Translations under genes and position numbers: made by a program | From: Gammaproteobacteria bacterium | Lineage (GTDB): Bacteria; Pseudomonadota; Gammaproteobacteria; GCA-001735895 | Assembly: GCA_050298595.1 (NCBI GenBank) | Contig: JBNKUM010000044.1 | Span: 1-15,544 of the forward strand | Reading direction: 5' to 3' | Length of the DNA: 15,544 nucleotides | Notes under the pieces: generated by a model | Database searches by the model: none | The model's input: only the letters and a program-made list of their open reading frames with translations | Told to the model about the DNA's origin: nothing | Part shown: positions 1-14,942 of the stretch, in pieces | Numbering within the stretch: position 1 is the first letter of the stretch | Layout: the number at the start of each line of letters is the position of its first letter

Positions 1-915
1 AATGACCTATCGCTGACCCTCAAGGCTTTATCAAAATATAAGCGTCGGCTTAAAGGCATTGCGATCGAGTCCACCTTCAACTGGTACTGGCTAGTCGATC
101 GGCTGATGGAGGCCGGATATCCTGTCGATCTGGTCAACACCACCAAGGTGGTTCAATATCAGGGACTCAAGCACAGTAACGACCGTTACGACGCCTTCCA
201 TCTGGGCCACCTGATGCGCCTGGGCATCCTGCCGACCGGCTATATCTATCCGAAAGAGCAACGCGGATTGCGCGACCTGCTACGCAAGCGTATGCAACTG
301 GTGCAGAATCGCAGCAGTCATATCATTCGCTTTAAATCGATGCTGCACAATCATCTGGGACAAACCGAGCGGGCTGATAAGATCAAGTCACCGAAATACC
401 AAATTCCTGATTTACCCGATGCCAACGTCAAACTAGCACTCAGTAGCCATCTAAGCATGGTACGGGCCTACAGCCAACAAATCCGCACGCTGGAAAAGGT
501 CACCGTGCAACAACTGAGGGAAAGCCCAGAACTGGATCGACTGAAGACCGTACCGGGCATCGGTGACATTCTGGCGCAAACCATCTGGCTCGAGACCGGA
601 GATATCGAGCGCTTTAAAGGTCCCGGTCAATTCGCCTCCTACTGCCGCTGCGTCAGCAGCCGGCGGGAAAGCAATGGCAAGAAGAAAGGTGAGAACAACC
701 GCAAGAACGGCAACAAGTACCTGGCCTGGGCCATGATCGAAGCAGCCAACTTCGCCATTATTCATAGTGAGAAAGCGAAGCGCTACTACCAGAAGAAGAC
801 AGCTGCGACTCACATTCTGGTCGCCAGGAAGGCGCTGGCTCACAAATTGGCCCGGGCCTGTTACTGGATGCTTAAACGGCAGAAGCCTTACGACGAAAAG
901 CGGTTGTTTCACTGA
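1..915 (+). CDS. IS110-family transposase/recombinase, 5' end outside the window
   Basis: The frame of ORF 106..915 is open from base 1 (NDLSLTLKALSKYKRRLKGIAIESTFNWYWLVDRLMEAGY...). It has DEDD RuvC-like motifs (IES; KHSNDRYDA) and C-terminal Transposase_20-type motifs (LKTVPGIG, FASYC, RESNGK with the putative catalytic Ser, GNKYL, ALAHKLAR). Confidence 0.95.
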   Translation, partial: NDLSLTLKALSKYKRRLKGIAIESTFNWYWLVDRLMEAGYPVDLVNTTKVVQYQGLKHSNDRYDAFHLGHLMRLGILPTGYIYPKEQRGLRDLLRKRMQLVQNRSSHIIRFKSMLHNHLGQTERADKIKSPKYQIPDLPDANVKLALSSHLSMVRAYSQQIRTLEKVTVQQLRESPELDRLKTVPGIGDILAQTIWLETGDIERFKGPGQFASYCRCVSSRRESNGKKKGENNRKNGNKYLAWAMIEAANFAIIHSEKAKRYYQKKTAATHILVARKALAHKLARACYWMLKRQKPYDEKRLFH

Positions 916-1325
916 GTATGAAAGCGTCGGGAAACCATGCAAAGGGTTGGCTAAAAAACCGTGAGTCTGATTGGCCTGGCGCTTTCTCTACCGAGTTAAA
1001 CGATATTGTGCCCATGTATTGATCCCTACAGGGTTGGTTCTGCAGAAGTGTAGTTTTGTTCTGCAAGGCCGCGGGTCTGATATTCCATTGGACGATGCAT
1101 GGTACCGATATTTTTCTGGGGCGAAAGCCAGGGCTGTTTGCAGCTTGATCCTGATGGGTTATCGGCATGGATGCCGTGTATAGCGTTTTTGCAGGAGCAA
1201 AAAACGATGACTGGTGCACGATATTTATAGCACCCACCGAATGAGAATGCGGGCGCAGGATGTCAATTACCTCGGCTACTACTATGGCCCGTATATTATC
1301 GGGAGGATATTTTTGTGCCTCCGCT
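916..1325 (+). ncRNA. Candidate bridge/seek-type guide RNA in the IS110 3' non-coding end
   Basis: Many stems: 921-930/976-985 (with G-U pairs), 1041-1047/1059-1065, 1105-1110/1160-1165, cgtttttgc/gcaaaaaacg near 1184-1206, ggtgc/gcacc near 1213-1234, ggagg/cctcc near 1302-1322. AGGGYTG...CTGAT modules recur. IS110-family non-coding ends are known to encode guide RNAs. Confidence 0.65.
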
Positions 1326-1330
1326 TGACA
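1325..1330 (+). promoter_or_regulatory. Outward-facing -35 hexamer (TTGACA) of the IS110 circle-junction promoter
   Basis: Perfect TTGACA near the inferred right end. No -10 lies at 17-nt spacing in the present flank, as expected if the -10 comes from the left end after circularisation. Confidence 0.55.
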
Positions 1331-1359
1331 AACTGCCTAATGGGTGACCCTTATGGCAG

Positions 1360-1463
1360 CATAAACGCTGTGTTAATTGGTCTGGGGGAGATGGCGAAAT
1401 TTTTGCGTATTTTAGCAAAAATAGCGACAACTTACCCAAACACAATTGAACACCTTGTTAGCT
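1360..1463 (-). other. Integron attC recombination site (104 bp)
   Basis: The minus strand reads R'' AGCTAAC, 5 nt, L'' GTTCAATTG ... ATTTTTGC-N8-GCAAAAAT ... L' CAATTAAC, 5 nt, R' GTTTATG. L'' equals the reverse complement of L' plus one extra C, the hallmark extrahelical G on the recombining strand. The site begins 6 nt after the stop codon of 1470..2054. Confidence 0.88.
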
Positions 1464-2093
1464 TTTGAGTTAGAAAAAATACCGTACTATCATTCTTGTG
1501 TTGGTACTCTGACCCCTATTCTTAACAGTCGATTTTTCAATATAATGTTCAGGACTTCCATTATCCAGTTTTTGTTCCCCGCTAAGATCATAAAATGCCC
1601 ATTCAGCCTCAAAACCTACTGTCAAATCTTGGAAAATAGAATAATCAAAACCAACAACAGGTGCATAATTGAAACCAGTCAATTTTTCTTCTGAACTACT
1701 GACATAAGTCCCAGTAGTTGCGTTGCCTCGTTTTTGTTTAGTATATGAGACTCTCAAACCAAAATATGTTCCTATGCTGTCATTAATATTACGAGATTTA
1801 AAAAAACCTGTACCTATATTTAAAGTAGAAAAATTGTTTTTATGAGAGGTTCCATACTCTTCAACATCATTGCCATACTCATCTTTATAGTAGGTGAGAA
1901 ATGGTTCTACCCTATAAGACTCCTGAATTTTTATCGGTAGATATGCAGATCTTGTATCCGAGGTTACTGATACCCCAAGACCAACATTTTCAGCTATCAC
2001 TGCAGGTGATATCAACATACATCCGAACAATATAGATAAAGTTTCCTTTCTCATTACGTCTCCAATTTTGAATTTTTAAGAATAGAAAGCTAA
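1366..2093 (-). mobile_element. Integron gene cassette carrying the outer-membrane beta-barrel gene
   Basis: It starts at G|TTAGCTTT (minus strand, 2094-2086), the exact complement of the AAAGCTAAC at its own attC R'' (1465-1457), as expected for a cassette that was once circular. It holds a single AT-rich ORF with a short leader. Confidence 0.82.
1470..2054 (-). CDS. Outer-membrane beta-barrel (porin-family) protein
   Basis: Sec signal peptide (MRKETLSILFGCMLISPAVIA|E), alternating amphipathic beta-strands, and a C-terminal VRYFF BAM-type signal. AT-rich. Confidence 0.8.
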   Translation of the reverse strand: MRKETLSILFGCMLISPAVIAENVGLGVSVTSDTRSAYLPIKIQESYRVEPFLTYYKDEYGNDVEEYGTSHKNNFSTLNIGTGFFKSRNINDSIGTYFGLRVSYTKQKRGNATTGTYVSSSEEKLTGFNYAPVVGFDYSIFQDLTVGFEAEWAFYDLSGEQKLDNGSPEHYIEKSTVKNRGQSTNTRMIVRYFF

Positions 2094-2404
2094 CATTATT
2101 GGGGTGATCCATTTTTTGCTCAGTCCCTGATGCTGCTTCGATGGCGTTTTTCCAATTTACTCACCGCCCCCTGCTAACGTTTAATTATTTCAGGGTAAGT
2201 TTACGGGATTTTCCAGGCCTTGAACATAGCTATCCATCAAGCCTTCTCTAGCCTGTCACCAGTACGCCTGCTTTTAGTGTTTTAGATCAGTCCATATCGT
2301 CAACTCGGTAAGGATTGACTCCAGAGACTGACTGGGGCGGTCGGCTGTTTGAAGATTAATATCCTTGCCGCAAGCTACTTAATTGGAATGTCGTTATTCT
2401 AGGC

Positions 2405-2463
2405 TTCCTGCCCTCCACCCTTCGGGCCAGTAGAGCTGTTCAAAATTGATCCTGACAATTTTG
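2405..2463 (+). repeat. Small palindromic intergenic repeat
   Basis: Perfect 8-bp hairpin CAAAATTG-atcctga-CAATTTTG (2441-2463) preceded by TCCTGCCC...CCCTTCGGG. It resembles gammaproteobacterial intergenic repeats (recollection, not searched). Confidence 0.45.
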
Positions 2464-2489
2464 TGGTTACTTCTTTCAACTGTATATGT

Positions 2490-2514
2490 ATTCCCACGCG
2501 GAGCATGGGAACGA
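2490..2514. repeat. REP-like palindrome
   Basis: TTCCCACGC-GGA-GCATGGGAA (2491-2511), 8/9 paired. It resembles the CGTTCCCACGCTCCGCGTGGGAA REP-type repeat of Gammaproteobacteria. Confidence 0.65.
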
Positions 2515-2519
2515 GGAAT

Positions 2520-2563
2520 ATGGATGTAGGTGTTAGGGCGAAGCAGGAAGTCAGAGCCGTGCT
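2520..2563 (-). repeat. Copy A of a ~45-50 nt dispersed mini-element, 3'-truncated
   Basis: Minus strand AGCACGG-ctctgact-TCCTGC-ttcgccctaac-ACCTACATCCAT aligns with the copies at 2751-2797 and 14811-14859. Confidence 0.65.
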
Positions 2564-2743
2564 TGTGACGTGGCAACCTCTTTGGTAGTGGGAATTCGGC
2601 AAGGTAAGAGCTTCCATCCTCAGGTCCGAAACGGTACATACTTGTGCCACTCCTGCCGTGCGAAGGTTATGCCCTCTCAGTATTTGCGGATGACAGTTTT
2701 CTACTTAAGTAAGTGCCATTATACTCTGTGACCTCTGTGTTCT

Positions 2744-2838
2744 CGGCAACAGCTCGGTAACTCCTGCGTTACTCTATCACCTACATCCGTATAGGCGTCC
2801 TGCGTTGCCCTACTTACGGGCGTCCTGCCCTATTTCGT
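2744..2838 (+). repeat. Nested mini-elements: copy B (2751-2797) inside copy C
   Basis: Copy B is AGCTCGGTAAC-TCCTGC-GTTACTCTATCACCTACATCCGTATAGGCG. Removing it restores CGGCAAC-TCCTGC-GTTGCCCTAC, a hairpin colinear with copy B itself. A CTCTGTG direct repeat (2724-2730, 2733-2739) precedes it. Confidence 0.65.
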
Positions 2839-2862
2839 GGATTATTCATCAAAAACAGACAA

Positions 2863-4125
2863 CTAAAAATAATCCTTAAAGAATTCTACTGGCACCCGTT
2901 CACCAGCCTTAACACTCCCGCTATCTTCCGGCAGCACAATGAAACAGTTAGCCATTTGCATAGAAGATAAAATACCCGAGCCCTGCTTTCCAGTGAGTAC
3001 AACCGTTAGATTACCTTCTGCATCACTACTGGCTATTGCCCGCTGGAATTCTCTACGCCCTGCACTTTTCCGAATGGGTGATTCAGCAATGGCTGAAAAG
3101 CGAATGGGTGGCCGGTAGGTTTTACCCGATAGCTTAATCAGGCAGGGCAAAACGAACTGATAAAATGTCACCATCACAGCAACCGGGTTACCAGGCAGAC
3201 CGAAAAACAACGCATCATTAATCTTACCAAAGGTTAGAGGTCGGCCCGGTTTCATGGCTATCTTCCAGAAATCTATATTACCAATTTCCTTTAATATCCC
3301 CTTGATATAATCCGCTTCACCTACCGATACACCACCCGAGGTTATGATTACATCGGAGCTACTGGCTGCTGACATCAATGCCTGTCGAATACTTTGCGGA
3401 TCATCTTTAATCACGCCCATATCGATGATATCGACATGGCATTGAGACAATAGGCCATACAGGCTGTAACGATTGCTGTCATAGATTTCACCCTTTTGTA
3501 AGGTCTGTCCAATCGACTTCAACTCATCACCGGTAGAGAAGAAACTGACACGCGGTTTTCGATGAACCTTACACTCACCCAGACCCAGAGATGACAGTAC
3601 ACCCAGCTCGGCTGCTCCAATTACGTGACCCGCAGATATGACAGTACGGCCCTTTTTTATATCTTCACCCGCATAACGCACATTCTGCTGCTTGCGATGT
3701 CCTGTACCAATCTCAACATGAGTTTCATCAAGCACCCTGGCCTGCTCCTGAATGACGATGCTATCGGTATCTTCAGGCATCACCGCTCCAGTCATTATAC
3801 GGATGCACTGATTCTCTTCGCAACTGCCGTTATACGGGCGACCGGCAAAAGCAGTACCAATAACCTGAAAAGACTTAGCGGCATCCTGCGGTAAATCAAT
3901 GCTGCGAACGGCATAGCCATCCATTGCTGAATTGTCATGTGCAGGTACATCAAGCGGAGAATGGATGTCCTGATAGGTAACCCGGTTTAAGCAATCACGA
4001 AGATTGAGCTGATTAAAATCAGCAAGGGCATTTGTATTTTGCAGAATTTTATCAACTGCCTCGGCTACTGTGATGGAGTCTTTCTCAAATGGGTCCATAC
4101 AACTACCTGGATTTTCTGAAGTCAT
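2863..4125 (-). CDS. moeA: Molybdopterin molybdo/tungstotransferase MoeA (gephyrin-like)
   Basis: Motifs DNSAMDGYAV, RIMTGA, STGDEL, IYDSN, TSGGVSVG, KPGRP, GLPGNP, QGSGILSSM. Confidence 0.96.
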   Translation of the reverse strand: MTSENPGSCMDPFEKDSITVAEAVDKILQNTNALADFNQLNLRDCLNRVTYQDIHSPLDVPAHDNSAMDGYAVRSIDLPQDAAKSFQVIGTAFAGRPYNGSCEENQCIRIMTGAVMPEDTDSIVIQEQARVLDETHVEIGTGHRKQQNVRYAGEDIKKGRTVISAGHVIGAAELGVLSSLGLGECKVHRKPRVSFFSTGDELKSIGQTLQKGEIYDSNRYSLYGLLSQCHVDIIDMGVIKDDPQSIRQALMSAASSSDVIITSGGVSVGEADYIKGILKEIGNIDFWKIAMKPGRPLTFGKINDALFFGLPGNPVAVMVTFYQFVLPCLIKLSGKTYRPPIRFSAIAESPIRKSAGRREFQRAIASSDAEGNLTVVLTGKQGSGILSSMQMANCFIVLPEDSGSVKAGERVPVEFFKDYF

Positions 4126-4685
4126 AGCTGATTAATTTTTTTCGTGTAATCTTCTTCTGTTATCAAATTCAGACGTTTGCAAATAAATTTTGCTATCTGT
4201 TCTGGTTTATTGATGTCCAGAAGCGGTAAGTCTTTGGTCATAATTACTGGTTGATCGGTAGCCAGTGCGACAATATCATTATCCTGCTGATACAGAAATG
4301 GCTTCTTCAGATCGGCTCTATGTAATTCTATCTTGTCAAAATGTTCACGCTTAAATCCTTCCACCAAAATCAGGTCAAGACGACTATGATCCAGCTCATC
4401 GATCAATTCACTCAAGCTTGATTCTGGCTGATCACCGTACTCGGTAATCAACGCTTTGCGCTTTTGTGATGATATTAATACCTGATAAGTATCTGCTTTG
4501 CGTATTTCAAAGCTATCTTTACCCGGTTGATCGATATCAAAACCCTCATGAGCATGTTTGATCACTGCCAGGCGCAGCTTGAACAACCGGAGTAATGGAA
4601 TCACTTTAGTCAGCAAAGTGGTCTTGCCGGTGCCGCTATAAGCTGAAAATCCAATAACAGGAGTCTGGTGTTTATTATTTGGCAT
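4122..4685 (-). CDS. mobB: Molybdopterin-guanine dinucleotide biosynthesis protein B
   Basis: Walker A (AYSGTGKTT), IKHAH, DQPGKDS, LILVEGFK. It overlaps moeA by 4 nt. Confidence 0.95.
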   Translation of the reverse strand: MPNNKHQTPVIGFSAYSGTGKTTLLTKVIPLLRLFKLRLAVIKHAHEGFDIDQPGKDSFEIRKADTYQVLISSQKRKALITEYGDQPESSLSELIDELDHSRLDLILVEGFKREHFDKIELHRADLKKPFLYQQDNDIVALATDQPVIMTKDLPLLDINKPEQIAKFICKRLNLITEEDYTKKINQL

Positions 4686-4688
4686 GGA

Positions 4689-5276
4689 TCAACTGAACTC
4701 CTGAATATCTTCAGGTGTATTAATGTTAGTGAATAAACGGGTTGTTGCATCAAATTCAACCAGAGTATATTGATGTTCTTTATACCAGCGATCTATCTTG
4801 CGCTCACCGTCCTTAAGATACTGTTCAAGACTGGTGCGCAAAGTAACGGGTAATAATGCATATACAGGCTGCATTCGTTCACCATCTGATGCAATCGCCA
4901 TTTCGCTATCAGTGCTGTTAATCGCATTGACCATGGTCACCAGATAATCATCGACCATAAAAGGACCATCGCAGGGTAAGGTAAGAATATAGTCTGTGTT
5001 TGCAACTGCCATAGCAGAATAAAATCCGGCCAATGGCCCCTGAAAATCACTCAGACTATCTTCAACAATGGGATAACCAAACTGAGAATAGACTTCAATG
5101 TTACGATTGGCATTTATCAAAATATTATCCGTTTGCTGAGAAATTCCTGCAATGACATGTTCAATCAATGTGCCATTTTTATATTTCACCAGTCCCTTAT
5201 CCTGGCCACCCATACGGCGACCCATACCACCTGCCAGAATGACAGCGGTTACATTTTTAGCGCTTATTGTTTTCAT
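4689..5276 (-). CDS. mobA: Molybdenum cofactor guanylyltransferase
   Basis: ILAGGMGRRMGGQDKGL, NANRN, GPLAG, PCDGP, NINTPED. Confidence 0.96.
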   Translation of the reverse strand: MKTISAKNVTAVILAGGMGRRMGGQDKGLVKYKNGTLIEHVIAGISQQTDNILINANRNIEVYSQFGYPIVEDSLSDFQGPLAGFYSAMAVANTDYILTLPCDGPFMVDDYLVTMVNAINSTDSEMAIASDGERMQPVYALLPVTLRTSLEQYLKDGERKIDRWYKEHQYTLVEFDATTRLFTNINTPEDIQEFS

Positions 5277-5974
5277 TGACTCACGTAGGTTTTCTGTTCA
5301 ACAGCATGTAGAACAGCATTCAGCATAAAGGCCAGTAGCATCAGCACGATGCCCAGCGCTATACCTTGCGAAAAATTACCTTTACTAGTTTCCAGTGCAA
5401 TCGCTGTTGGTATGTTTCGAGTGTAATTCATAATATTACCGCCCAGCATCATGGATGCACCGACTTCGGCAATGATACGCCCGTAAGCCGCCAGTAAAGC
5501 GGTCAATAATCCAAATCGGACTTCAAATATCAAGGTAAAAAAAGCTCTGACAGGACCTGCTCCCAGTGTCCTGGCAGTTTCCCAGGCACGGTTATCCAGC
5601 GCCTGAAATGAGGCTAAAGACATAGAAACAAGAATTGGAAAACTCAGAATAAACTGTCCTATGATCATCGCCGTCTGTGTAAACAACAGACGAAAATCAC
5701 CTAACGGCCCCTGACGAGATAAAATAATGAATAAGGTTAAACCTACAACCACTGCGGGTATGGATAACATTGCACTAAAAAAAGAGATGAGCCATTTTCG
5801 GCCAGGGAAGCGTGTATGAGCAAGAATAAAAGAGGTTAATAAGGCAGGAGGTACCGCAGAGACAATCGCAACCGTAGATACTTCAAATGAAATCCCAATA
5901 ATACCCCAGATAGTAGTATCGCCGGTTACCAATAGCCTGAGGGCTTCTAATGTTGCATCGCTTAACGATTCCAT
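5273..5974 (-). CDS. tupB: Tungstate ABC transporter permease
   Basis: Hydrophobic permease with PAVVVGL, GPLG..LLFT, an EAA-like loop, EVGASMMLGGNI and TAIALETSKG. RBS GAAGGTG. It overlaps mobA by 4 nt. Confidence 0.9.
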   Translation of the reverse strand: MESLSDATLEALRLLVTGDTTIWGIIGISFEVSTVAIVSAVPPALLTSFILAHTRFPGRKWLISFFSAMLSIPAVVVGLTLFIILSRQGPLGDFRLLFTQTAMIIGQFILSFPILVSMSLASFQALDNRAWETARTLGAGPVRAFFTLIFEVRFGLLTALLAAYGRIIAEVGASMMLGGNIMNYTRNIPTAIALETSKGNFSQGIALGIVLMLLAFMLNAVLHAVEQKTYVSQ

Positions 5975-6410
5975 ATCACCTTCACTTTATTGAGTCGTTT
6001 GATTAAATACAAGGTAGTGTTCCGATTCTCTTACTAGTGGCTACTTAGAGGATATATTACCAGCCAATCGCCTGAATATGGGATATAAAAAAACATCAAC
6101 ATTGATTAGCAAGGATGTTAATATTTAATTAATTTATTTTATAAGAAATTAAAAAATCCCTACAAAATCAATCTAATTCACAACAAAAATGAATATTAAA
6201 TAGATTTTTCGTCATATAACATACTAAACCCTCATCAAATTAATTTATTATTAGCTAAACAGCCATTGAATATATCACTTTGCAATTAGCAAAACGTTTG
6301 GAATATCATCCTGTTAGAGTTATGTTGGCTTTATACTCGATATAAATAATACCTAATACCAATCGAGCAACATAGTTTCAAAAAATAAAAACACCTCCTG
6401 GAGGAGTCTG
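5975..6410. promoter_or_regulatory. AT-rich divergent promoter region between tupB and the aor operon
   Basis: 436-nt ORF-free, very AT-rich region between divergent starts. A GGAGGAG RBS lies just before 6411. Individual promoter boxes were not resolved. Confidence 0.6.
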
Positions 6411-6893
6411 ATGCAAAAATCCCTACACATTGACCCGGTAAAATGTACGGGTTGCGTTCAATGCGAGATGGCCTGTTCGTTTGAACACACAGGCTTATTT
6501 AACCCCTCACGATCTTACATCAAGGTCTTTAACTTTCATCACGAAGGGCGCTTCGCACCCTACACCTGCACCCAATGCGATGAAGCCTGGTGTCAACGGG
6601 CCTGTCCGGTTGATGCAATCAGCCTGGATAGTGCAACCGGTGCTAAAGTGGTTTCCGAATCACGTTGTGTCGGCTGCAAGGTCTGCACCATCGCCTGCCC
6701 CTTTGGCACAATCAACTATTCGCAAGCCACCCACAAGGTGGTCAAGTGTGACCTGTGCGGCGGCGATCCAGCCTGTGCTAAGGCTTGTCCGACCGCAGCC
6801 ATCACCTATATAGACGCGGACTGGACCGGTTATGATCGTATGATGGCTTCAGCATCCAGAAGCCTGCCATCTACCGAAGCCAATGCATCCTAA
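6411..6893 (+). CDS. aorA: 4Fe-4S dicluster electron-transfer subunit of aldehyde oxidoreductase (AorA-like)
   Basis: Four Cys clusters (CTGCVQCEMAC, CTQCDEAWCQRACP, CVGCKVCTIACP, CDLCGGDPACAKACP), directly upstream of the AOR gene. Confidence 0.9.
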   Translation: MQKSLHIDPVKCTGCVQCEMACSFEHTGLFNPSRSYIKVFNFHHEGRFAPYTCTQCDEAWCQRACPVDAISLDSATGAKVVSESRCVGCKVCTIACPFGTINYSQATHKVVKCDLCGGDPACAKACPTAAITYIDADWTGYDRMMASASRSLPSTEANAS

Positions 6894-6906
6894 GGAGGAA
6901 TGAATT

Positions 6907-8760
6907 ATGTCCTGGACAAAAAAAATATTACGAGTGAACCTCTCTACAGGAACTTGCACCGCCGAAGATTTGAATATGCAGTGGGCCAATGAATACCTTG
7001 GCCAACGCGGTCTGGCTTCCAAATACCTGGCAGAAGAAGTGGATCCGAAATGTGATCCCCTGGGCCCTGATAATAAACTCATCATGGCTACCGGCCCTTT
7101 GACCGGCACCATGGCATCTACGTCAGGGCGCTACTCTGTCATTACCAAAAGCCCTCTCACCGGCGCTATAGCCTGCTCTAACTCGGGCGGTTTTCTGGGC
7201 GCAGAATTCAAAAATGCCGGTTGGGATATGCTGATCTTTGAAGGCAAATCACCAGAGCCGGTGTATCTATGGATCAATAACGACAAGGCAGAGTTACGCA
7301 GCGCTGCTGACATGTGGGGCAAATCGGCCTGGGAAACCGATGATATGCTGCACAAGATCCATCAGGATCCACAGATCCGCATCGCCACCGTAGGCCGCCC
7401 CGCTGAAAGCGGCTGCCTGTACGCAGGCGTCATCAACGACAAACACCGTGCAGCAGGACGTTCTGGCGTCGGCACCGTAATGGCATCCAAGAACCTGAAA
7501 GCCGTCGCGGTGCGCGGCACGCTAGGTGTGGGTAATAACATCAGGGATATTTCCGCCTTCATGAAAGCCGTTAATGATGGCAAGCAGGTACTGGCAGATA
7601 ATGCCGTAACTGGTCAGGGTCTACCCACCTATGGCACACAGGTACTGATGAATGTCATCAATGGCGTAGGTGGTCTACCTGCGCATAATATGCGTGATGT
7701 CGGCTTTAAAGGTGCTGGCAATATCTCCGGTGAAGCCATGCATGAACCACGCGCCAGCGATGGCAAGGCCAACCTGACCACCAATGCGGGCTGTTTTGGT
7801 TGTACGATCGCCTGTGGCCGCATCTCTACAATCGATAAAACCCACTTCTCGGTTGAAAACAAACCCGAATACTGGGGCGCTTCCGGTGGCCTGGAATATG
7901 AAGCTGCCTGGGCAATGGGGGCAGATACCGGTGTCGATGACCTGAATGCCATCACCTATGTAAACTTCCTGACCAACGAAGATGGCTTTGATCCCATCTC
8001 CTTCGGCTGCACCGTCGCAGCCGCGATGGAATTGTTCGAAGAAGGTGTGTTAACCCCCGCCCAGACCGATGGTATCGAATTAAAGTTTGGCTCAGCCGAA
8101 GCCTTTGTCTCAGCTGCTGAGGCTCTGATTGCAGGTACCGATTTCGGTAAAGACCTGGCCATGGGGTCCAGGCGCCTATGTGAGAAATACGGGCGTCCTG
8201 AGCTATCCATGTCGGTCAAGGGTCAGGAATTCCCGGCCTATGATCCTCGCGGTATCCAGGGTATAGGCCTTAACTATGCCACCTCTAATCGAGGTGCCTG
8301 TCATGTACGTGGTTATACTATTGCCTCTGAAGTGCTGGGTATTCCGGTAAAAACCGAACAAACCGATACCGATGGAAAACCTGAACTGGTGAAAGCGTTC
8401 CAGGATGCGACAGCACTGGTCGATTCTTCAGGTCTTTGTCTATTCACTACCTTTGCCTGGGGTATGGACAATATAGCACCGCAAATCGATGGCGCCTGTG
8501 AAGGTGACTGGACGGTTGAGAAATGCCTGGAAGTGGGTGAAAGGGTGTGGAATTTGGAGCGTGACTTCAACAATGCGGCTGGTTTTACCTCCAATGATGA
8601 CAAACTGCCAAAGCGATTACTGGAAGAAGCCATTAAAAGCGGCCCCACCGCAGGTCAGGTCAATCGACTGGGTGAAATGCTGCCCAAGTATTATGAGCTT
8701 AGAGGCTGGACTGATCAGGGTGAACTGACTGCAGAAACCCGTCAGCGCCTGTCTTTATAG
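6907..8760 (+). CDS. aorB: Tungsten-dependent aldehyde oxidoreductase catalytic subunit (AOR family)
   Basis: KSPLTG..SNSGG, AAGRSGVGTVMASKNLKA, CFGCTIAC, GLEYE, VKGQEFPAYDPRG, SNRGACH, YYELRGW. RBS TAAGGAGG. Confidence 0.96.
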   Translation: MSWTKKILRVNLSTGTCTAEDLNMQWANEYLGQRGLASKYLAEEVDPKCDPLGPDNKLIMATGPLTGTMASTSGRYSVITKSPLTGAIACSNSGGFLGAEFKNAGWDMLIFEGKSPEPVYLWINNDKAELRSAADMWGKSAWETDDMLHKIHQDPQIRIATVGRPAESGCLYAGVINDKHRAAGRSGVGTVMASKNLKAVAVRGTLGVGNNIRDISAFMKAVNDGKQVLADNAVTGQGLPTYGTQVLMNVINGVGGLPAHNMRDVGFKGAGNISGEAMHEPRASDGKANLTTNAGCFGCTIACGRISTIDKTHFSVENKPEYWGASGGLEYEAAWAMGADTGVDDLNAITYVNFLTNEDGFDPISFGCTVAAAMELFEEGVLTPAQTDGIELKFGSAEAFVSAAEALIAGTDFGKDLAMGSRRLCEKYGRPELSMSVKGQEFPAYDPRGIQGIGLNYATSNRGACHVRGYTIASEVLGIPVKTEQTDTDGKPELVKAFQDATALVDSSGLCLFTTFAWGMDNIAPQIDGACEGDWTVEKCLEVGERVWNLERDFNNAAGFTSNDDKLPKRLLEEAIKSGPTAGQVNRLGEMLPKYYELRGWTDQGELTAETRQRLSL

Positions 8761-8779
8761 CCGTAGGCTAAATCCATCT

Positions 8780-8819
8780 GTCCCATCCCCGCCTTAACAA
8801 AAAAGGGGATGGGGCTTTT
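8780..8819 (+). terminator. Stem-loop with short U tail between aorB and aorC (weak terminator or mRNA-stabilising hairpin)
   Basis: CCCATCCCC (8782-8790) pairs with GGGGATGGG (8805-8813) around a 14-nt loop, and TTTT follows at 8816-8819. Confidence 0.6.
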
Positions 8820-8847
8820 GCCAACGTTCATAGACCGAGCAACCATC

Positions 8848-10110
8848 ATGCACTACGTTATTATCGGCGCAGGTCCTTCCGGCGTCACTGCAGCAGAAAC
8901 CCTACGCAAACATGACCCTCTGGGTCAGATTGATTTACTCACGTCAGAACCCGAAGCCCCCTATTCTCGTATGGCGATCCCGTATTACATGACCGGCAAT
9001 ATCGACGAACAGGGCTGTCATTTGCGCAATAACGACCAGCACTTTATTGACCTGAAGATTAATATCATCAATGCAATGGTCATCTCGCTCAACAATGCCA
9101 CTAAAACCCTCGAACTCACCAATGGCAACACCCTGAGCTATGACAAGGTGTTGATCGCTACCGGTTCCCGTCCGGCGGTACCGCCCATCCCGGGCGCAGA
9201 TCTGCCTATGGTGAGCAATTGCTGGACCCTGCAGGATGCCAGAGATATCATCCAGCGCGCGCAGTCAGGTAATAAAGTCGTGCTGATTGGTGCGGGCTTT
9301 ATCGGCAGTATCATTCTGGAAGCCCTGTTCCAGCGCGGTGTTGAGTTACATGTCGTCGAAACTGGCAACCGCATGGTGCCACGTATGCTGAATGAAAAAG
9401 CCGGTGGACTGCTAAAAAACTGGTGCATCGAAAAAGGGGTTGATGTGCACACCTCCTGCAGTGTGGAATCCATCGTGGATAATGGAGACGATACAGCGAC
9501 GGTCAGCCTGAGTGATGGCACCGAACTGACAAATATCGCACTGATTATTACCGCAACCGGCGTAAAGTCGAATCTTGAGCTACTACAGGGTAGTGATATC
9601 CAGCTCGATCAGGGCATACTGGTAAATACCAAAATGCAAAGCTCAGACCCCGATGTGTATGCCGCAGGTGACGTGGCACAGGGACTGGACTTCTCAACCG
9701 GTACCTCAACTGTGCAGGCGATACAGCCTACAGCCACCGATCATGGCCGTATTGCTGCTTTGAATATGGCAGGTAAAACCACCACCCATCATGGTTCGGT
9801 GAATATGAATGTTCTGGATACACTTGGATTAATCTCACACTCATTTGGATTATGGATGGGTGTAGAAGGAGGAGATACCGCAGAGCTTTACACACCGGAT
9901 GATTATAAATACCTGAACCTGCAATTTGATAATGACCGACTGGTGGGAGCGAGCTGCAGTGGTATTACACAACATATCGGCATTCTGCGTGGTCTGATCG
10001 AAAGCCGCATTCCACTGGGCGGTTACTGGAAGGATAAACTGCTGCAGGACCCTACTCTATTTGTGGAAGCCTATATGGCCAGTACACAGCAACTGGGTTA
10101 TCACGCATGA
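8848..10110 (+). CDS. aorC: FAD-dependent NAD(P)H oxidoreductase subunit (AorC-like)
   Basis: Two Rossmann motifs (IIGAGPSG, LIGAGFIG), ATGS, and VYAAGD. The start is placed at ATG 8848 (MHYVIIGAG) because ATG 8809 lies inside the hairpin. Confidence 0.88.
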   Translation: MHYVIIGAGPSGVTAAETLRKHDPLGQIDLLTSEPEAPYSRMAIPYYMTGNIDEQGCHLRNNDQHFIDLKINIINAMVISLNNATKTLELTNGNTLSYDKVLIATGSRPAVPPIPGADLPMVSNCWTLQDARDIIQRAQSGNKVVLIGAGFIGSIILEALFQRGVELHVVETGNRMVPRMLNEKAGGLLKNWCIEKGVDVHTSCSVESIVDNGDDTATVSLSDGTELTNIALIITATGVKSNLELLQGSDIQLDQGILVNTKMQSSDPDVYAAGDVAQGLDFSTGTSTVQAIQPTATDHGRIAALNMAGKTTTHHGSVNMNVLDTLGLISHSFGLWMGVEGGDTAELYTPDDYKYLNLQFDNDRLVGASCSGITQHIGILRGLIESRIPLGGYWKDKLLQDPTLFVEAYMASTQQLGYHA

Positions 10111-10358
10111 AGATGCATATCGAGCTGTATGCATCGCTGATGGAGTATTTGCCTCCGGGCAAGGAACGTTTTCGTCGCGATATTGAAGTAGCCGATGGGA
10201 TCAATGTTCAACAGGTCATCGAACAGTTTAATATCAGCGATGAGCAGGCTCATATCGTACTGGTAAATGGACATTTCGTGTGTGGGGATGAACGCTCCAG
10301 CCGAGTTTTAGCCTCTAACGATACGGTAGCGATCTGGCCCCCGGTTGCGGGTGGATAA
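10107..10358 (+). CDS. moaD: MoaD/ThiS-family sulfur carrier protein
   Basis: 83 aa with a ubiquitin-like pattern (VLVNG) and C-terminal PPVAGG. ATGA overlap with aorC. Confidence 0.88.
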   Translation: MKMHIELYASLMEYLPPGKERFRRDIEVADGINVQQVIEQFNISDEQAHIVLVNGHFVCGDERSSRVLASNDTVAIWPPVAGG

Positions 10359-10366
10359 ACAGCTCA

Positions 10367-10681
10367 ATGTTTAATGCTGGCAATGATCCAATAGAGATGG
10401 GCTATACCGTGAGTGAGTTTTCTAACGTATTGCACGGTAACTTCAGCGCAGAGCAATCAGAGTATAGATGCAAGGACCTAAGCCAGTGCAGTTGGTTGAT
10501 CTCACATGAACTCGGGAATTTACAAACTGAGATCAACGTTATACAGAAACCACCCAGAAAACTGGGGTTATTAAAACTGCCTGTGCTGGGCGTTACATTT
10601 AAGCTGATCTCTGGAGAACCTCAGGATGAGCAGCAATTTTTTGAAAAATTCTTCCGTTATTTCCACAAGGGCGGAGGTTAA
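10367..10681 (+). CDS. Small hypothetical protein ending in Gly-Gly-Gly
   Basis: Packed tightly between moaD (8-nt gap) and moeB (6-nt gap). C-terminus FFRYFHKGGG. Confidence 0.8.
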   Translation: MFNAGNDPIEMGYTVSEFSNVLHGNFSAEQSEYRCKDLSQCSWLISHELGNLQTEINVIQKPPRKLGLLKLPVLGVTFKLISGEPQDEQQFFEKFFRYFHKGGG

Positions 10682-10687
10682 GGTTAA

Positions 10688-11431
10688 ATGAATCCCGCTG
10701 ACGAATCGCGCTATGCGCGCCAGATCAAACTCAAACAAATCGGCCCAGAAGGCCAGCAGAAAATCCAGCAAAGCACTGTATTGATTATTGGGATGGGTGG
10801 ACTAGGTTCTCCCGCTGCGTTATATCTTGCAGCTGCTGGAGTCAGGCAGATAATTATCAGCGATTTCGATGTAGTTGAAGAGTCCAATCTTCAGCGCCAG
10901 ATCATCCATGGCCATGCAAATATTGGGCAACTGAAAACCCATTCAGCACGTGAAAGTATTCAGGCCATTAATCCAGACTGCCAGGTTGAATGTATCGATT
11001 ATGAACTGGTCGGTGATACGCTTTTGCAGGAAGTTGAAAAAGCCACCATCGTACTCGATTGTAGCGATAACTTCGCCACCCGATTTGCCGTCAATCGTTA
11101 TTGTGTTAAGACCGAAACCCCACTGGTATCAGCCGCTGCAATTCGCATGGAAGGCCAGATCATGAACTATATTCCACATCATAATGGCCCCTGCTACCAG
11201 TGTCTGTATAACGATCAGTATGAAACCGCACAAAACTGTGAATCGGAAGGTGTACTTGGTCCAGTCGTCGGTGTTATTGGGACTATGCAGGCTTTGAGCG
11301 CTCTTCTCATTCTGATTGGAGAAACGGATCAATTGCTGGGCAAGCTACTATTGTTTGATGGTCTTAGTATGCAATGGCAACAGGTACAAATTCCAAAAAA
11401 CTCAAAATGCCCGGTTTGTTCAACAAATTAA
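10688..11431 (+). CDS. moeB: MoeB/ThiF-family adenylyltransferase
   Basis: RYARQI, IIGMGGLG, SNLQRQ, DCSDNF, and Zn-binding CYQC and CPVC. Confidence 0.94.
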   Translation: MNPADESRYARQIKLKQIGPEGQQKIQQSTVLIIGMGGLGSPAALYLAAAGVRQIIISDFDVVEESNLQRQIIHGHANIGQLKTHSARESIQAINPDCQVECIDYELVGDTLLQEVEKATIVLDCSDNFATRFAVNRYCVKTETPLVSAAAIRMEGQIMNYIPHHNGPCYQCLYNDQYETAQNCESEGVLGPVVGVIGTMQALSALLILIGETDQLLGKLLLFDGLSMQWQQVQIPKNSKCPVCSTN

Positions 11432-11464
11432 GGAAAAAACAGGGCAACTACGCTATTAAAATCA

Positions 11465-12172
11465 TCATGCTGATCTTGACTGATAGTGGGCTATATGGGT
11501 GACACCCTGTCTTTTACCACGTGGATTCAAATTGGTTAGTTTGCAGTTAGACAGCTGTAAGCGTTCATCCTGAAGCGCCAGAAATAGATCCGGATCATGA
11601 CTCGCAATAACCATAGCGGTTCCCTGAGCCTTAAATTCCTTAAGTAATTCGAGAGTTCTAAGTTTAGATGCCTGATCCAGATTGGCAGTAGGCTCATCGA
11701 GTAAAACAGCATGCGGGTTACGTAGATAAGCTCGCGCAATCGCAACACGCTGTTTTTCTCCTCCGGACAGGCTATTCGCATTTTGTTGGAGTAAGTGCCC
11801 TAATCCGGCCCACTCAACAGCCTGAGCAATTTTTTTCTCAGACTGTTTGTCAGGTTTAATGATATAGCGCAGATTTTTGTCAACGCTGGCATCGAACATA
11901 TAGGGCTGTTGATGCAGATAAAGAAAGTTTTTTAGCAATACAGATTTACGCCGCTTAATCTTCTGGTCTCTTTCCTTTACACGCAGGAAACCAGAATCAG
12001 GATAGCTTAGACCAGCAAGAATTTTGAGCAGTGTGGTTTTACCCACACCATTCTCTCCCACCAGTATCGTACATTGTGTATTCCTGATTTTAATTCGAGC
12101 ATCAAGAATGACTGATTTTGTACCGAAAGATTGATTCACACCGTGAAAATAATACTCAAAATCATCCTGCAT
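11465..12172 (-). CDS. tupC: Tungstate ABC transporter ATP-binding protein
   Basis: Walker A GENGVGKT, signature LSGGEKQR, Walker B LLDEPT, and H-loop SHD. It starts 14 nt downstream of tupA. Confidence 0.85.
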   Translation of the reverse strand: MQDDFEYYFHGVNQSFGTKSVILDARIKIRNTQCTILVGENGVGKTTLLKILAGLSYPDSGFLRVKERDQKIKRRKSVLLKNFLYLHQQPYMFDASVDKNLRYIIKPDKQSEKKIAQAVEWAGLGHLLQQNANSLSGGEKQRVAIARAYLRNPHAVLLDEPTANLDQASKLRTLELLKEFKAQGTAMVIASHDPDLFLALQDERLQLSNCKLTNLNPRGKRQGVTHIAHYQSRSA

Positions 12173-12186
12173 AATCTGTACGGCGC

Positions 12187-13038
12187 TTAGTTATTAACGA
12201 CACTACTGGTATTAGCATTGGGTGTAAACAATACCTGATTAAATTTCTTATATTTACCAATCAGATCCTGCCCATGTTTGGATGTTATCCAGTTAATTAA
12301 TGCCATAGCACCTTTGTTATTAATATCTGGATATCGCTCTGGATTGACGGCAATAATGCCATAAGGGTTGAAAAGCAGGCTATCGCCTTCATAAGCAATC
12401 TGCATCTGAACCTTATTCTGATAGCTCAACCAGGTGCCTCTATCGGTTAAGGTATAGGCCTCCAGTTCATTAGCCATTTGTATGACCTTACCCATACCCT
12501 GGCCAGCTTCGCGATACCAGTCGCCTTTAGGATCGATATTAACGGCTTGCCAGATTTTCTTTTCCTTTTTGTGCGTACCTGAATCATCACCGCGTGATAC
12601 AAACAGGCTTTTGGTATCTTTTATACGTTTAAAAGCATCATTAATTGAAGTGCTGTTTTTTAAGTTAGCAGGATCTGAAGGACTGCCAATGATGACAAAA
12701 TCGTTGTACATGACAGGGTATCGTTTTACCCCATACTTTTGATCCACAAAGTCTTTCTCAGCACCTGGTGCGTGTACCAGTACTACATCAACATCGCCAT
12801 CACGTCCTAGACGTAGTGCCTTACCGGTACCCACAGCGATCACATGTACCTCATAGCCTGTGTCATTTTTAAATTCCGGCAGAAGATAATTTAACAATCC
12901 CGAATTTTCAGTACTGGTTGTGGTTGCCATACGAATGGGTTGCTTAGAGGTAGATGACTCTGTTGCGGCCTGCACCGAAGAAAATAAAAAGGTTAAAAAT
13001 AGAAAAAGAGCTGTCAGTTTCAATGTTTTCATAATCAT
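12187..13038 (-). CDS. tupA: Tungstate ABC transporter substrate-binding protein
   Basis: Signal peptide, the TupA-type TTTS motif (ATTTSTENSGLL), GTGKAL, SRGDDSGTH, and DRGTW. The start may be ATG 13032. Confidence 0.94.
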   Translation of the reverse strand: MIMKTLKLTALFLFLTFLFSSVQAATESSTSKQPIRMATTTSTENSGLLNYLLPEFKNDTGYEVHVIAVGTGKALRLGRDGDVDVVLVHAPGAEKDFVDQKYGVKRYPVMYNDFVIIGSPSDPANLKNSTSINDAFKRIKDTKSLFVSRGDDSGTHKKEKKIWQAVNIDPKGDWYREAGQGMGKVIQMANELEAYTLTDRGTWLSYQNKVQMQIAYEGDSLLFNPYGIIAVNPERYPDINNKGAMALINWITSKHGQDLIGKYKKFNQVLFTPNANTSSVVNN

Positions 13039-13075
13039 GTTTATTGCTTTCTTTGTTACGTTATTAATAGAAAAC

Positions 13076-13212
13076 CAGTTTAAATAGTTTATTCAGATAG
13101 TTTTGTAGTAATTCTAGCGCTAGAACAGTCAAAACTTTCACAATCTCGCTGCCCAGGGTTAATAAATACACTGCTTCAAAACTATTTAAACTGTACCTGA
13201 ATCAGATAGTTC
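13076..13212. promoter_or_regulatory. Repeat-rich putative operator region upstream of tupA
   Basis: Perfect 15-bp inverted repeat (13076-13090/13179-13193), 10-bp direct repeat TCAGATAGTT (13093-13102, 13202-13211), and 14-bp palindrome TTCTAGCGCTAGAA (13112-13125). Confidence 0.55.
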
Positions 13213-13463
13213 TGCCAATTAATAAAAAACGGAGGCACCCTGTTTTTGGGCGAAATTAGCGAAATGCAAGTACAGAGTTCAAGGTCACCCTGCACTGTGG
13301 ACCCGAAATGATAGAAGATGAAAAAATAATCAAAGAACAGCTGGGATAAATAGAGCTTAGTACAATCGATTCCTGATAATAAGTATTCGTCAGTGCTTTT
13401 CTATAATATAATATTTTTTCCATCGAGCACACTATCCGGTTTAATACTGAGGTTGAAGAGGCC

Positions 13464-13814
13464 ATGAAAATTGAAGGTATCTGGACAGCGGAAGTTTACG
13501 GACCGTTTGGTTGGGAAAACATAGGAATAATGATTTTTGAGCAAGGACGGATTATTGGCGGTGGTAATAGACATTACTCATCTGGCAGTTACTCCATTTC
13601 CGAAGACGATTTTAATGCCAGTATCGAAGTTCATTATTACGGACCACCTCGCACCATGTTTGGTGAATCATCCGAATCTTTTTCTAACTTGATAACAGGT
13701 AAACGAAACCAGGACACCATTGAAGGTTTGATCAAACGTCCGGATAAACCCCAATACGAAATTCGGGTAAGATTAACTCGTCGCATGGATGTACCACCAC
13801 ACAAAACAGAATAA
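13464..13814 (+). CDS. Small beta-barrel protein, GrlR-like/hypothetical
   Basis: N-terminal EGIW, G-x-x-x-F-x-x-G-x-I-x-GG and Y-x-x-GSY patterns resemble the GrlR family. RBS GAGG. The family assignment is from recall. Confidence 0.6.
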   Translation: MKIEGIWTAEVYGPFGWENIGIMIFEQGRIIGGGNRHYSSGSYSISEDDFNASIEVHYYGPPRTMFGESSESFSNLITGKRNQDTIEGLIKRPDKPQYEIRVRLTRRMDVPPHKTE

Positions 13815-13929
13815 TTAAAACTACTATCCAAAGAAATCAGGCTCGTTTGAATGTTAACTTTGGGTGGTAAGTTCTCATTGAGGGGCAGAGCCTGAATGAC
13901 TTTTTAGCTGGAAATGGTCATTCTGAGCC

Positions 13930-14058
13930 CAGGATCATTTAACCTGGATTCTGCAGTTGACCGCTGTAATAGCCCGCTATTCCGCGTCGTCACGCCTTGA
14001 TCTACACCACAAACGTATACAACTCGTCCAACTACGCATTCCAGGTTTAAGACTCTAG
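13930..14058. mobile_element. MITE-like remnant with imperfect terminal inverted repeats
   Basis: AACCTGGATTCTGCAGTTG (13941-13959) matches the reverse complement of 14029-14047 (AACCTGGAATGCGTAGTTG) at 15/19. Non-coding, between convergent genes. Confidence 0.5.
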
Positions 14059-14065
14059 AAAAATT

Positions 14066-14121
14066 GCAACATTTCTTTACACCCCAACTAATGTAAAGCT
14101 ATCTATCAATGTTTGAGTTGC
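14066..14121 (-). terminator. Stem-loop downstream of the GNAT gene (possible terminator)
   Basis: CTTTACA (14075-14081) pairs with TGTAAAG (14092-14098), extended by AACATT/AATGTT. The T-run is short. Confidence 0.35.
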
Positions 14122-14125
14122 GTAA

Positions 14126-14611
14126 CTACATCGCTGAGCCAACGGTGGGTTCATAACTCATTTTAATCAGCGCTACAGCCTCATCATTCAGGTTTTTTCG
14201 GGCTTCGATTTCATACGGTATAAAACCGATTTTTGTATACAATAAAAGGGCTTTGCTGTTATTGCTGAAGACTGATATATGTGGGGTGGCATTATACTCA
14301 AACACACAGATTTTAATCATATGATGAGTCAATGCTGTTCCGATGCCCATTCCCTTAAATTGATCAGATACAATAACGTTGCCTATAAAGGTGGTATCAT
14401 TCGGTATAACGTCATACAGATTGGCGAATGCGGCAACAGTCCCATTAACCAGACATGCCGTCAGATTTTTTCTCTTCTTTGCAATCTTTTCAAGCTGTTC
14501 AATATCCCAGGGGTATTTGGCTGTTGGTGCGACTAGATACAGTTCTTCGGGTGAAGAAACCAGATTAATTATTTGATTATAATGCTGTTTTGTTGCGGGG
14601 ATGAATTCCAC
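14126..14611 (-). CDS. GNAT-family N-acetyltransferase
   Basis: Motif A (VIVSDQFKGMGIG) and motif B (NSKALLLYTKIGF). GTG start. Confidence 0.88.
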   Translation of the reverse strand: MEFIPATKQHYNQIINLVSSPEELYLVAPTAKYPWDIEQLEKIAKKRKNLTACLVNGTVAAFANLYDVIPNDTTFIGNVIVSDQFKGMGIGTALTHHMIKICVFEYNATPHISVFSNNSKALLLYTKIGFIPYEIEARKNLNDEAVALIKMSYEPTVGSAM

Positions 14612-14710
14612 GTTTGATAATTTCCATGACTGGGGTAGTCATTTATACCACGCTTAACCACACCCTAAATTGATAAGCGTCAAACCATTCACCATCATTC
14701 CAATACGTTA

Positions 14711-14910
14711 AGGCACCTCTGATCAATTATGTTGTATCTCTGGCTCACAGGCTGATGCGCAATCAAGGCGCAACTTTGAAAGTATGCGTCTGCCTGGCAA
14801 GAAGTTGTAAAGCTCGGCGCATCCTGCTCCCGCCCCTTACCTACTTATCCATGTAGGCGACGCAGAGTGCGCATCAGCCTGTAAGCCCCGTAGGGCGAGC
14901 CCTGAAGTAT
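14711..14910. mobile_element. Truncated MITE-like palindromic element containing mini-element copy D (14811-14859)
   Basis: 19/20 inverted repeat 14742-14761/14868-14887 with inner CAACTT/AAGTTG. It starts with the TIR-like GGCACCTCTGA, whose partner is absent. The right boundary is approximate. Confidence 0.55.
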
Positions 14911-14942
14911 AGAGCCCAGTTTGACTATGACTGTACCCATAC

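Follow-up and report, generated by a model that had tools for sequence, protein, structure and literature searches.

The insertion sequences of the IS1111 group are known to carry a guide RNA in the non-coding DNA at one end. According to the sections of Durrant et al. 2024 (PMC11208160) considered here, the bridge RNA of IS1111 elements is located in the right end, and IS1111 orthologues often have their donor-binding bases in a multi-loop. Siddiquee et al. 2024 (PMC11187229), in the corresponding parts of their account, placed the seekRNA in the non-coding end behind the gene, described short and long forms, and called the role of the long form (145–170 nt) unknown. The stretch treated here, referred to as the window, comprises 15,544 nt (contig JBNKUM010000044.1, positions 1 to 15,544, forward strand, assembly GCA_050298595.1) from a Gammaproteobacteria bacterium, and it begins inside a transposase gene of this kind. 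Comparison with relatives makes it very probable that an IS1111-type element has its long non-coding 3' region at positions 916–1346 and that its guide RNA (bridge RNA or long seekRNA) is encoded there. A first-pass annotation had already regarded this stretch as the RNA-coding end of an IS110-family element, which is supported by the family comparison.

The element consists of the following main parts in the window:

1–915, + strand: 3' 304 codons and stop codon of an IS110-family (IS1111-type) transposase gene, from the open reading frame (ORF) and its Pfam domains
1325–1346, + strand: right end, with TTGACA at 1325–1330 (likely the −35 box of a junction promoter), the inverted repeat ACTGCCTAATG at 1332–1342, GGG, and the core TG at 1345–1346

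The open frame of the gene enters from the window start and matches PF02371 (E 1.5e-18) and PF01548 (E 3.2e-9) of Pfam; both the DEDD (RuvC-like) N-terminal and the Transposase_20 C-terminal domain, characteristic of the IS110 family and IS1111 group, are present. The window is the start of contig C44; both the left end and the start codon with the missing N-terminus were found on contig C22 (reverse complement), with an overlap of 54 nt between this contig and the window. A full-length paralogue on contig C17 (68% identity over 23–1159, 90% over 1297–1358) matches the NCBIfam entry NF033542, "IS110 family RNA-guided transposase", with 182.8 bits against a cut-off of 140. Non-coding DNA amounts to about 80 nt upstream of the gene and about 430 nt downstream (916–1346), as is usual in IS1111 elements. 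A sub-terminal inverted repeat of 11 nt (CATAAGGCAGT in the left end on C22, ACTGCCTAATG in the right end, 10/11 matching) falls within the 7–17 bp of that group, and relatives have the same layout; the assignment to the IS1111 type is based on the long non-coding region behind the gene together with these repeats. Since the distance from stop codon through core TG (431 nt) lies within the 365–560 nt of those relatives with a detected end, the length of the non-coding end is ordinary. An Rfam scan of window positions 1–3000 (E up to 10) yielded three chance-level matches, none of them on the + strand of 916–1346, and a protein search of plasmids for experimentally studied elements returned matches labelled solely "IS110 family transposase".

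The left end reads TGATAAACATAAGGCAGT... and the right end ...TTGACAAACTGCCTAATGGGTG, and the right target flank ACCCTTATGG begins at 1347. A second copy of the element has its left end at the start of C17 and its right end at the start of contig C76 (99% identity over 1212–1354); three more right ends of the paralogue type are present in the genome. The two copies share CGAGTC-TG...TG-ACCCT(T/A)A, a 96%-identical variant has the flank ACCTTAATT, and six right ends part company after ...GGG[TC]GACCC. The ends of the relatives are alike: the left one has TG-ATAA(T/A)C(A/C)T and the inverted repeat, the right one TTGAC...inverted repeat-TAATGGG-TG; these conserved motifs replaced a naive search for inverted repeats, which gave mostly chance repeats. 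At the right ends of L053/L054, L029/L030, L061, L081 and L087 the core is CG instead of TG; in L053 and L054 the left end and the copy in the donor guide are CG as well, so that the core seemingly covaries, while the other CG-core loci keep TG in the guide. Joining of the ends would bring TTGACA of the right end and GATAAA/TAAACA of the left end together as a promoter, by analogy with ISEc11, for which the available text of PMC11187229 reports a junction promoter. A promoter and terminator scan of 800–1500 gave two promoter-like sites and one terminator-like site, no excess over shuffles.

Relatives were collected by a scan with one genome per species, in which the best 80 of 574 confirmed loci, among 600 matched stretches, were used; their transposases are 48–66% identical to the query. 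The gene was located in 78 of the 80 loci, 61 regions contained an internal anchor motif, and the 55 distinct ones were aligned. Loci left out of the alignment had no downstream sequence, a different downstream sequence, or failed the pattern, and most of them were regained later by covariance models, with which unit 1 was found in 74 and units 2 and 3 each in 77 of 82 sources. The three-module layout is the norm of this clade and neither special to the window nor an expansion. The predicted fold of 905–1360 is only weakly better than that of shuffles (z −1.67; 4/100 shuffles as good). When every column of the non-coding region was scanned for covariation with 24 nt of either end, the background was uniform (z 4–5) and only the pair of element position 2 and window position 971 stood out; the scan gave no evidence for a reading of the inverted repeats by RNA.

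Unit 1 lies just behind the stop codon:

919–987, + strand: unit 1, probable target-binding loop (equivalent of the short seekRNA), from model R1, covariation with the flanks and compensatory stem changes
921–932/974–985, + strand: outer stem
942–947, + strand: right-target guide AAGGGT
948–960, + strand: central hairpin
963–971, + strand: left-target guide GAGTC (963–967), core TG (968–969), and AT (970–971), which equals the first two bases of the element after the core

Comparison of the relatives identifies unit 1 as the probable target-binding loop, with strands covarying with the right and left insertion flanks. The covariance model R1 matches the window at 919–989 (E 1.5e-9) and finds the unit at the same position in all 53 build sources, as well as in 21 of 29 further sources and one cut copy. 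In the family, the outer stem encloses, in this order, AGCCA, a first guide about 5 nt further on, a TGG...CCA hairpin, a second guide after another 3 nt or so, TG, A(T/A) and TGG. As a reverse complement, the first guide corresponds to the DNA that adjoins the right-end TG on its right side (6–9 nt each in the examples L032, L034, L036, L042, L063, L079, L086, L087, L091 and L094). The second is a copy of the DNA preceding the left-end TG; TG comes next, and then AT or AA, which track the element starts TGAT and TGAA; element position 2 equals the counterpart of window position 971 in 46/46 loci, and left-flank position −1 agrees with window position 967 in 0.98 of 42 loci (permutation maximum 0.81). 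In anchored permutation tests unit 1 reached 3.94 versus 3.03 for the right flank and 4.12 versus 2.26 for the left flank (0/2000 as high); all permutations used here ignore relatedness, so that their significance is overstated. An alignment-free test gave 6.10 of 7, compared to 4.51 for unrelated targets, with 31 of 42 loci specific. In the window itself, AAGGGT matches ACCCTT (1347–1352) as its complement, and GAGTC-TG-AT is identical to the left junction CGAGTC-TG-AT in both copies. Two segments of opposite strands, which match both sides of the target and change with it, are thus found in unit 1 as in seekRNAs and bridge RNAs, and the order of the guides (complement of the top strand first) and their position agree with the short seekRNAs of IS1111 elements, as far as these are described in the text of PMC11187229.

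The outer stem of unit 1, which had been proposed from the window sequence, proved to be real, with compensatory changes relative to the 68%-identical paralogue. Stems were counted per sequence, because alignments misplaced the outer stem: it was out of register in a MAFFT alignment, on which RNAalifold showed the central hairpin alone, and a model-based alignment paired best when slid by +2 (69.5% versus 57.5%). At least 8 uninterrupted pairs were present in 38/53 relatives, compared to 10% of shuffles, and there were 47 distinct stem sequences among the 53.

Downstream, the third module and the sequence following it contain these features:

1100–1234, + strand: unit 3, from model R3
1107–1116, + strand: candidate right-donor guide GATATTTTTC, approximately the reverse complement of core G and the first left-end bases (tentative)
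1116–1144, + strand: donor multi-loop hairpins hp1 (1116–1131, GAAA loop) and hp2 (1133–1144), from alignments and the RNAalifold structure inside R3
1145–1158, + strand: probable left-donor guide, TTGATCC (conserved in the family) and then TGATGGG, a same-sense copy of the right end TAATGGG
1159–1207, + strand: lineage-specific insertion of 49 nt with self-folding capacity, which splits the donor guide between GATGGG and TGAC
1208–1234, + strand: TGAC (core TG, and AC as the first two right-flank bases), then hairpin hp3 (1213–1217/1230–1234), family motif GATGGGTGACTGGTGCGG
1249–1322, + strand: motif TGCGGGCGC (ACGGGYGCG in the family) and two hairpins (1288–1291/1300–1303 and 1302–1306/1318–1322), from the family alignment

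Since it contains a copy of the right end and two flank bases, unit 3 is by comparison probably the donor-binding part, with a left-donor guide and a junction-matching dinucleotide placed among conserved hairpins, i.e., in a multi-loop. In nearly all relatives, GCCTTGATCCTGATGGGTGACTGGTGCGG lies 221–357 nt downstream of the stop codon. Like a donor guide, TGATGGG-TG copies the right end with the core (TAATGGG-TG), although in the window 49 nt interrupt it. Right-flank positions 1–2 are tracked by the dinucleotide behind GGGTG (ac, tc, gc, tt, tg), with 0.85 versus a permutation maximum of 0.68; in a further permutation test 3/2000 were as high, on 12 distinct pairs. The right-donor guide at 1107–1116 is proposed tentatively: one register fits 42/46 loci, with 4–8 of 12 compared positions matching, and the motif GAnnnTTTTC before the hairpins resembles the reverse complement of the left end. 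Behind hp3 the family order is ACGGGYGCG, a variable stretch, a hairpin conserved in position with differing sequences, TTGACA, the inverted repeat and the end. Model R3 found one match in each of its 77 sources and no cross-match to units 1 or 2, the unit-3 profile gave 0 cross-matches, and the profiles of units 1 and 2 gave one non-significant match each on unit 3; unit 3 is not homologous to the other two.

The 49-nt insertion is not present in the paralogue, in L019, or in any of the 54 other aligned relatives, and no other copy was found in the genome. Contigs from two other studies contain it without gaps, each with a different flank: record 10 of X5 covers 904–1351 without gaps and continues into the flank of copy B, and record 17 of X6, with 24 differences in 579 nt, covers 771–1349 without gaps and continues into a third flank. 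The occurrence of insertion-bearing copies at three or more sites suggests that the element is still moving; the insertion would then be looped out of the donor guide without stopping movement.

Between these two modules lies a unit which shares much of its plan with unit 1:

1008–1108, + strand: unit 2, paralogue of unit 1, from model R2, covariation of the outer stem and tracking of the left flank
1012–1021/1093–1102 and 1024–1025/1090–1091, + strand: outer stem
1030–1034, + strand: 5' strand AGGGT
1036–1070, + strand: inner hairpin (stem 1041–1047/1059–1065)
1071–1079, + strand: 3' strand GCGGGTC (1071–1077) and TG (1078–1079)

Model R2 matches the window at 1008–1108 (E 3.2e-9) and its 77 sources with E 2.1e-6 or lower. 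The consensus, CGTGAGCCA-nnn-AGGGnTTGG-hairpin-GAAnCCAnAGATCTGTG-...-ATTGGAC, contains the fixed parts of unit 1 (AGCCA, GGGnTTGG, CCA, TCTG, ATTGGA), and of the 12 pairs of the outer stem 10 show compensatory changes; the stem also has many U-G pairs compatible with the + strand alone. Using nhmmer, the unit-1 profile gave colinear matches in 24/53 unit-2 sequences (5 below E 0.01, best 3.4e-5), the reverse search with the unit-2 profile gave 7/53 (best 7e-4), and R2 cross-matched unit 1 in 10 sources, 3 of them below E 0.01. Because of these cross-matches, while R1 barely finds unit 2, the likeness is judged to be real but faint; by comparison, unit 2 is an internal duplicate of unit 1, retained in nearly all relatives.

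Unit 2 appears to track the same left flank as unit 1, more weakly. At 0.90 of 42 loci, left-flank position −1 is identical to the base preceding the TG of unit 2 (permutation maximum 0.76); anchored tests gave 3.32 versus 2.31 for the left and 3.33 versus 2.78 for the right flank (0/2000 as high for both), and in the alignment-free test the left flank scored 5.48 of 7 versus 4.58, with 17/42 loci specific where about 4 would be expected by chance. Within a subgroup of nearly identical scaffolds, all four retargeted members with known left flank (L042, L063, L079, L087) match 3 of the last 4 flank bases, compared to 0–1 of the last 4 for the default of the subgroup; this comparison was read by eye, with L042 shifted by one base. 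In the window, AGGGT of unit 2 matches ACCCT, and GCGGGTC-TG versus ACGAGTC-TG is identical at 5 of 7 positions with one additional G-T. Units 1 and 2 both seem to be set to one target, not to several, which explains why the same motifs had been seen twice in the first-pass annotation. Unit 2 was also considered as a donor loop, and this was ruled out, its strands not matching the conserved left or right end; CCCATT occurs in one subgroup only.

The following mechanism could be envisaged. The guide RNA would most likely be co-transcribed behind the transposase gene. The 5' strand of unit 1 (AAGGGT) would complement the DNA right of the insertion point, and its 3' strand would repeat the left DNA, TG and the first two bases of the element; the third module, TGATGGG-TG-AC, would correspond to the right end, the core and the first two flank bases, and guide the left donor. 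Base-pairing of unit 2 with the left flank and core of the same target has a slightly better than even chance. With unit 1 reading the new site, unit 2 may serve to retain the flank of the resident copy or to increase affinity. The wider proposal, namely that the guide RNA of this IS1111 clade has three DNA-reading modules with unit 2 as a second target-reading loop, and that natural dual-target relatives may exist, is speculative and rather improbable.

Several points weigh against this picture. The relatives represent a single clade, chosen by likeness to the transposase of the window, and not all IS1111 elements, and the permutation statistics are inflated by relatedness, as mentioned above. 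The core is presumably TG, and a search of 31 genomes (30 relatives and G000) with the flank of copy B revealed no empty target site. None of the RNA runs searched with window positions 700–1500 was listed as carrying the stretch. The donor guide is interrupted in the window copy. The fit of the candidate right-donor guide is partial: its changes follow left-end positions 4–5 for AT, AA, CA and CG and fail for CT. Model R1 had no match at E<1 on unit 2 in the window, and matched it in 2/53 sources with E 3.4 and 7.7; right-flank tracking by unit 2 was near chance in the alignment-free test (6/42 loci specific, median share 0.78). For ISEc11, the text of PMC11187229 states that transposition was better with just the 82-nt seekRNA than with the long form; by analogy, assays of this kind might work without units 2 and 3.

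The best surviving alternative concerns unit 2, which could be a mere scaffold for protein binding or folding, a fossil duplicate whose likeness to the flank stems from common descent or from gene conversion by unit 1. This is unlikely, although it has to be taken seriously, since the matches are short (3–5 nt), the alignment-free tracking of the right flank is near chance, the permutation controls are uncorrected for relatedness, and the sufficiency of the 82-nt seekRNA in ISEc11 (PMC11187229, in the part cited above) would be understandable. A scaffold should not, however, follow the left flank at 17/42 loci when about 4 are expected, nor should the tracking recur in 4/4 retargeted members with nearly identical scaffolds; moreover, the conserved sequence around the guide positions is short, leaving little homology for gene conversion.

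Much less probable is the original proposal for this stretch, an array of three or four homologous guides for several targets, or for cutting into separate guides, intermediate between bridge RNAs and TIGR arrays and with CUGA as box D. Its observations were accurate: AGGG[TC]TG at 943, 1030 and 1130, CTGAT at 967, 1077 and 1151, and CGATATT at 1001, 1106 and 1219 are all present, the motif-sharing units being spaced by about 90–100 nt. Three units of the form AGGGYTG..(10–50 nt)..CTGAT occurred in 0/5000 dinucleotide-preserving shuffles, which overstates the significance as the motif was defined after it had been seen. More than two conserved structured modules exist, as had been suggested, and all three covary with DNA at the element boundaries. 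Units 1 and 2 are truly homologous; processing happens, since short and long RNA forms of IS1111 elements are known (PMC11187229, in the sections used here), and links of IS110 proteins to Nop5 and to TIGR-Tas are in print (PMC11213020, in the part available; see also PMC12045711). Tandem target loops also occur: in L075, a record of Undibacterium macrobrachii with an in-frame TGA in the transposase gene near L075:2326, an 82-nt insertion relative to L070 and L055 (region 2921–3090) creates a second unit-1-like module (R1 E 0.013), in which the left guide is similar (AGGAC versus AGGCT in the first module) and the right guide differs (AACAGA versus CGGGGT). Target loops can apparently duplicate and drift apart.

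The array nevertheless fails on most counts. The expectation of separate targets was already contradicted by the tests described, units 1 and 2 matching the same target in the window (ACCCT; GAGTC/GGGTC and TG) and across relatives, and unit 3 reading the element's own right end. Of the presumed homology, units 1 and 2 stood, and unit 3 did not; its AGGGCTG (1130–1136) corresponds to the family motif CCAGGGGC, which stays CCAGGG irrespective of the target and showed no tracking of the right flank (2.76 versus 2.63 in permutations, 76/2000 as high). The outer stem assigned to unit 3 (1105–1110/1160–1165) is a perfect complement in the window, but its 3' arm lies in the 49-nt insertion and it is not a feature of the family. 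A degenerate fourth unit near 1257 has no unit-like motifs and no + strand match of R1, which with filters off found, beyond unit 1, + strand matches only at 1117–1130, 1132–1176 and 1317–1350 (E 4.1–8.6); instead of the gcgggc/gcccgt stem suggested there, local hairpins are supported by the family alignment. Recurrence of CGATATT is due to chance, or partly to overlap of its second copy with the candidate donor guide, since some 7-mer occurred at least three times in 301/5000 shuffles and the motif is not kept in the 68%-identical paralogue. The second CTGAT depends on A at 1080, which is polymorphic: T was present in every covering contig of three of four runs (X1, X5, X9; X1 is possibly the window's own origin), the family consensus there is TCTGT, and with T at this position the motif is lost. 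And, as stated, the layout is the norm of the clade and not an expansion.

Box C and box D have the sequences RUGAUGA and CUGA, respectively. CTGA in unit 1 consists of the last flank base, the TG core and A; its first base depends on the last base of the target (C in 42, T in 10 and A in 1 of 53), which argues against a box D. CTGA was found in 41, 15 and 44 of 53 units 1, 2 and 3, i.e., it is not conserved, and box C is nearly absent (1, 3 and 0 of 53). Weakest of all is the idea that the conserved blocks act as DNA (transposase sites or end hairpins) or encode a minus-strand protein, which is scarcely credible: a minus-strand ORF of 121 aa exists (872–1237) and the last 50 nt, with −35 box and inverted repeat, surely act as DNA, but the stems keep pairing via U-G pairs (UG:10, UG:9 and others), which only the + strand allows, any reading frame is broken by the indels relative to the paralogue (21, 4 and 49 nt), and the guide segments follow the flanks, which fits RNA-DNA pairing.

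Some observations concern the surroundings of the element. Copy A is located inside an element of about 70 nt (CCTCATCC..GAGGCTCACCCTTAGGGCAG..), with the left flank on the reverse complement of C22 (about 130 nt before the element) and the right flank at window positions 1347–1420. This small element is itself inserted in some copies of a repeat of about 250 nt, which resembles part of a gene family and has relatives on C12, C100, C50, C30, C23, C15 and C85; uninterrupted copies have TC at the place of the core TG. The right half of the 70-nt element resembles the inverted repeat of the IS1111-type element itself. Downstream, two ORFs were noted on the minus strand, 1470–2054 (194 aa, with a signal-peptide-like start, possibly an outer-membrane beta-barrel) and 2863–4125 (420 aa).

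With its predicted guide RNA at the place known from the literature, the element of the window is mostly an ordinary member of the IS1111 family and not a multi-target array. Three features may be new: the target tracking by unit 2, the donor guide split by 49 nt at three or more sites, and the tandem unit-1 modules of L075. No role of a unit 2 was found in print; a second stem-loop may already be contained in supplements or figures of PMC11187229 and PMC11208160, of which parts were considered. A testable idea for the role of the long seekRNA follows, its extra sequence comprising a conserved second copy of the target loop, which tracks the left flank, plus a mimic of the right-end junction. 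If true, unit 2 might bind the resident flank in the course of excision or direct transfer, with the new site left to unit 1. To judge from the insertion, a large loop-out precisely where the end-matching bases meet the core may be tolerated by the donor guide; in view of this apparent tolerance of 49 nt, split or extended guides could be of practical interest for engineering.

Among described systems, the seekRNA elements ISEc11, ISPa11 and ISKpn4, as presented in the text of PMC11187229, are closest. They share the non-coding end downstream of the transposase gene, the sub-terminal inverted repeats, and a stem-loop that closely follows the stop codon, with a 5' strand complementary to the top strand of the target and a 3' strand matching the bottom-strand partner; a −35 box in the right end for a junction promoter is likely shared too, and insertion without duplication beyond the shared bases may be. 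In contrast to them, the present element is known from sequence comparison alone, and where those have the long form, the sequence behind unit 1 would here consist of a paralogous loop following the left flank and a mimic of the right end. The bridge RNA of IS621 and other IS110 elements (PMC11208160; Hiraizumi et al. 2026, PMC13626964; both in the portions available) likewise has target-binding and donor-binding parts, a shared core dinucleotide, and, in IS621, core-adjacent dinucleotides that match partner DNA in a handshake-like manner. Unlike IS621, with CT as core and two loops, the present element has a probable TG core, a reversed order of guides and three conserved modules; the equivalence to the handshake guides is loose, since those pair with the top strands, whereas the junction dinucleotides here are same-sense to the top strand. 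TIGR arrays and box C/D RNAs, in the accounts accessible, have in common with it distantly related protein families and guides reading both DNA strands; the present element differs from TIGR arrays in having no repeat-spacer array, no separate targets and no box C/D, and its third module is unrelated to the first two.

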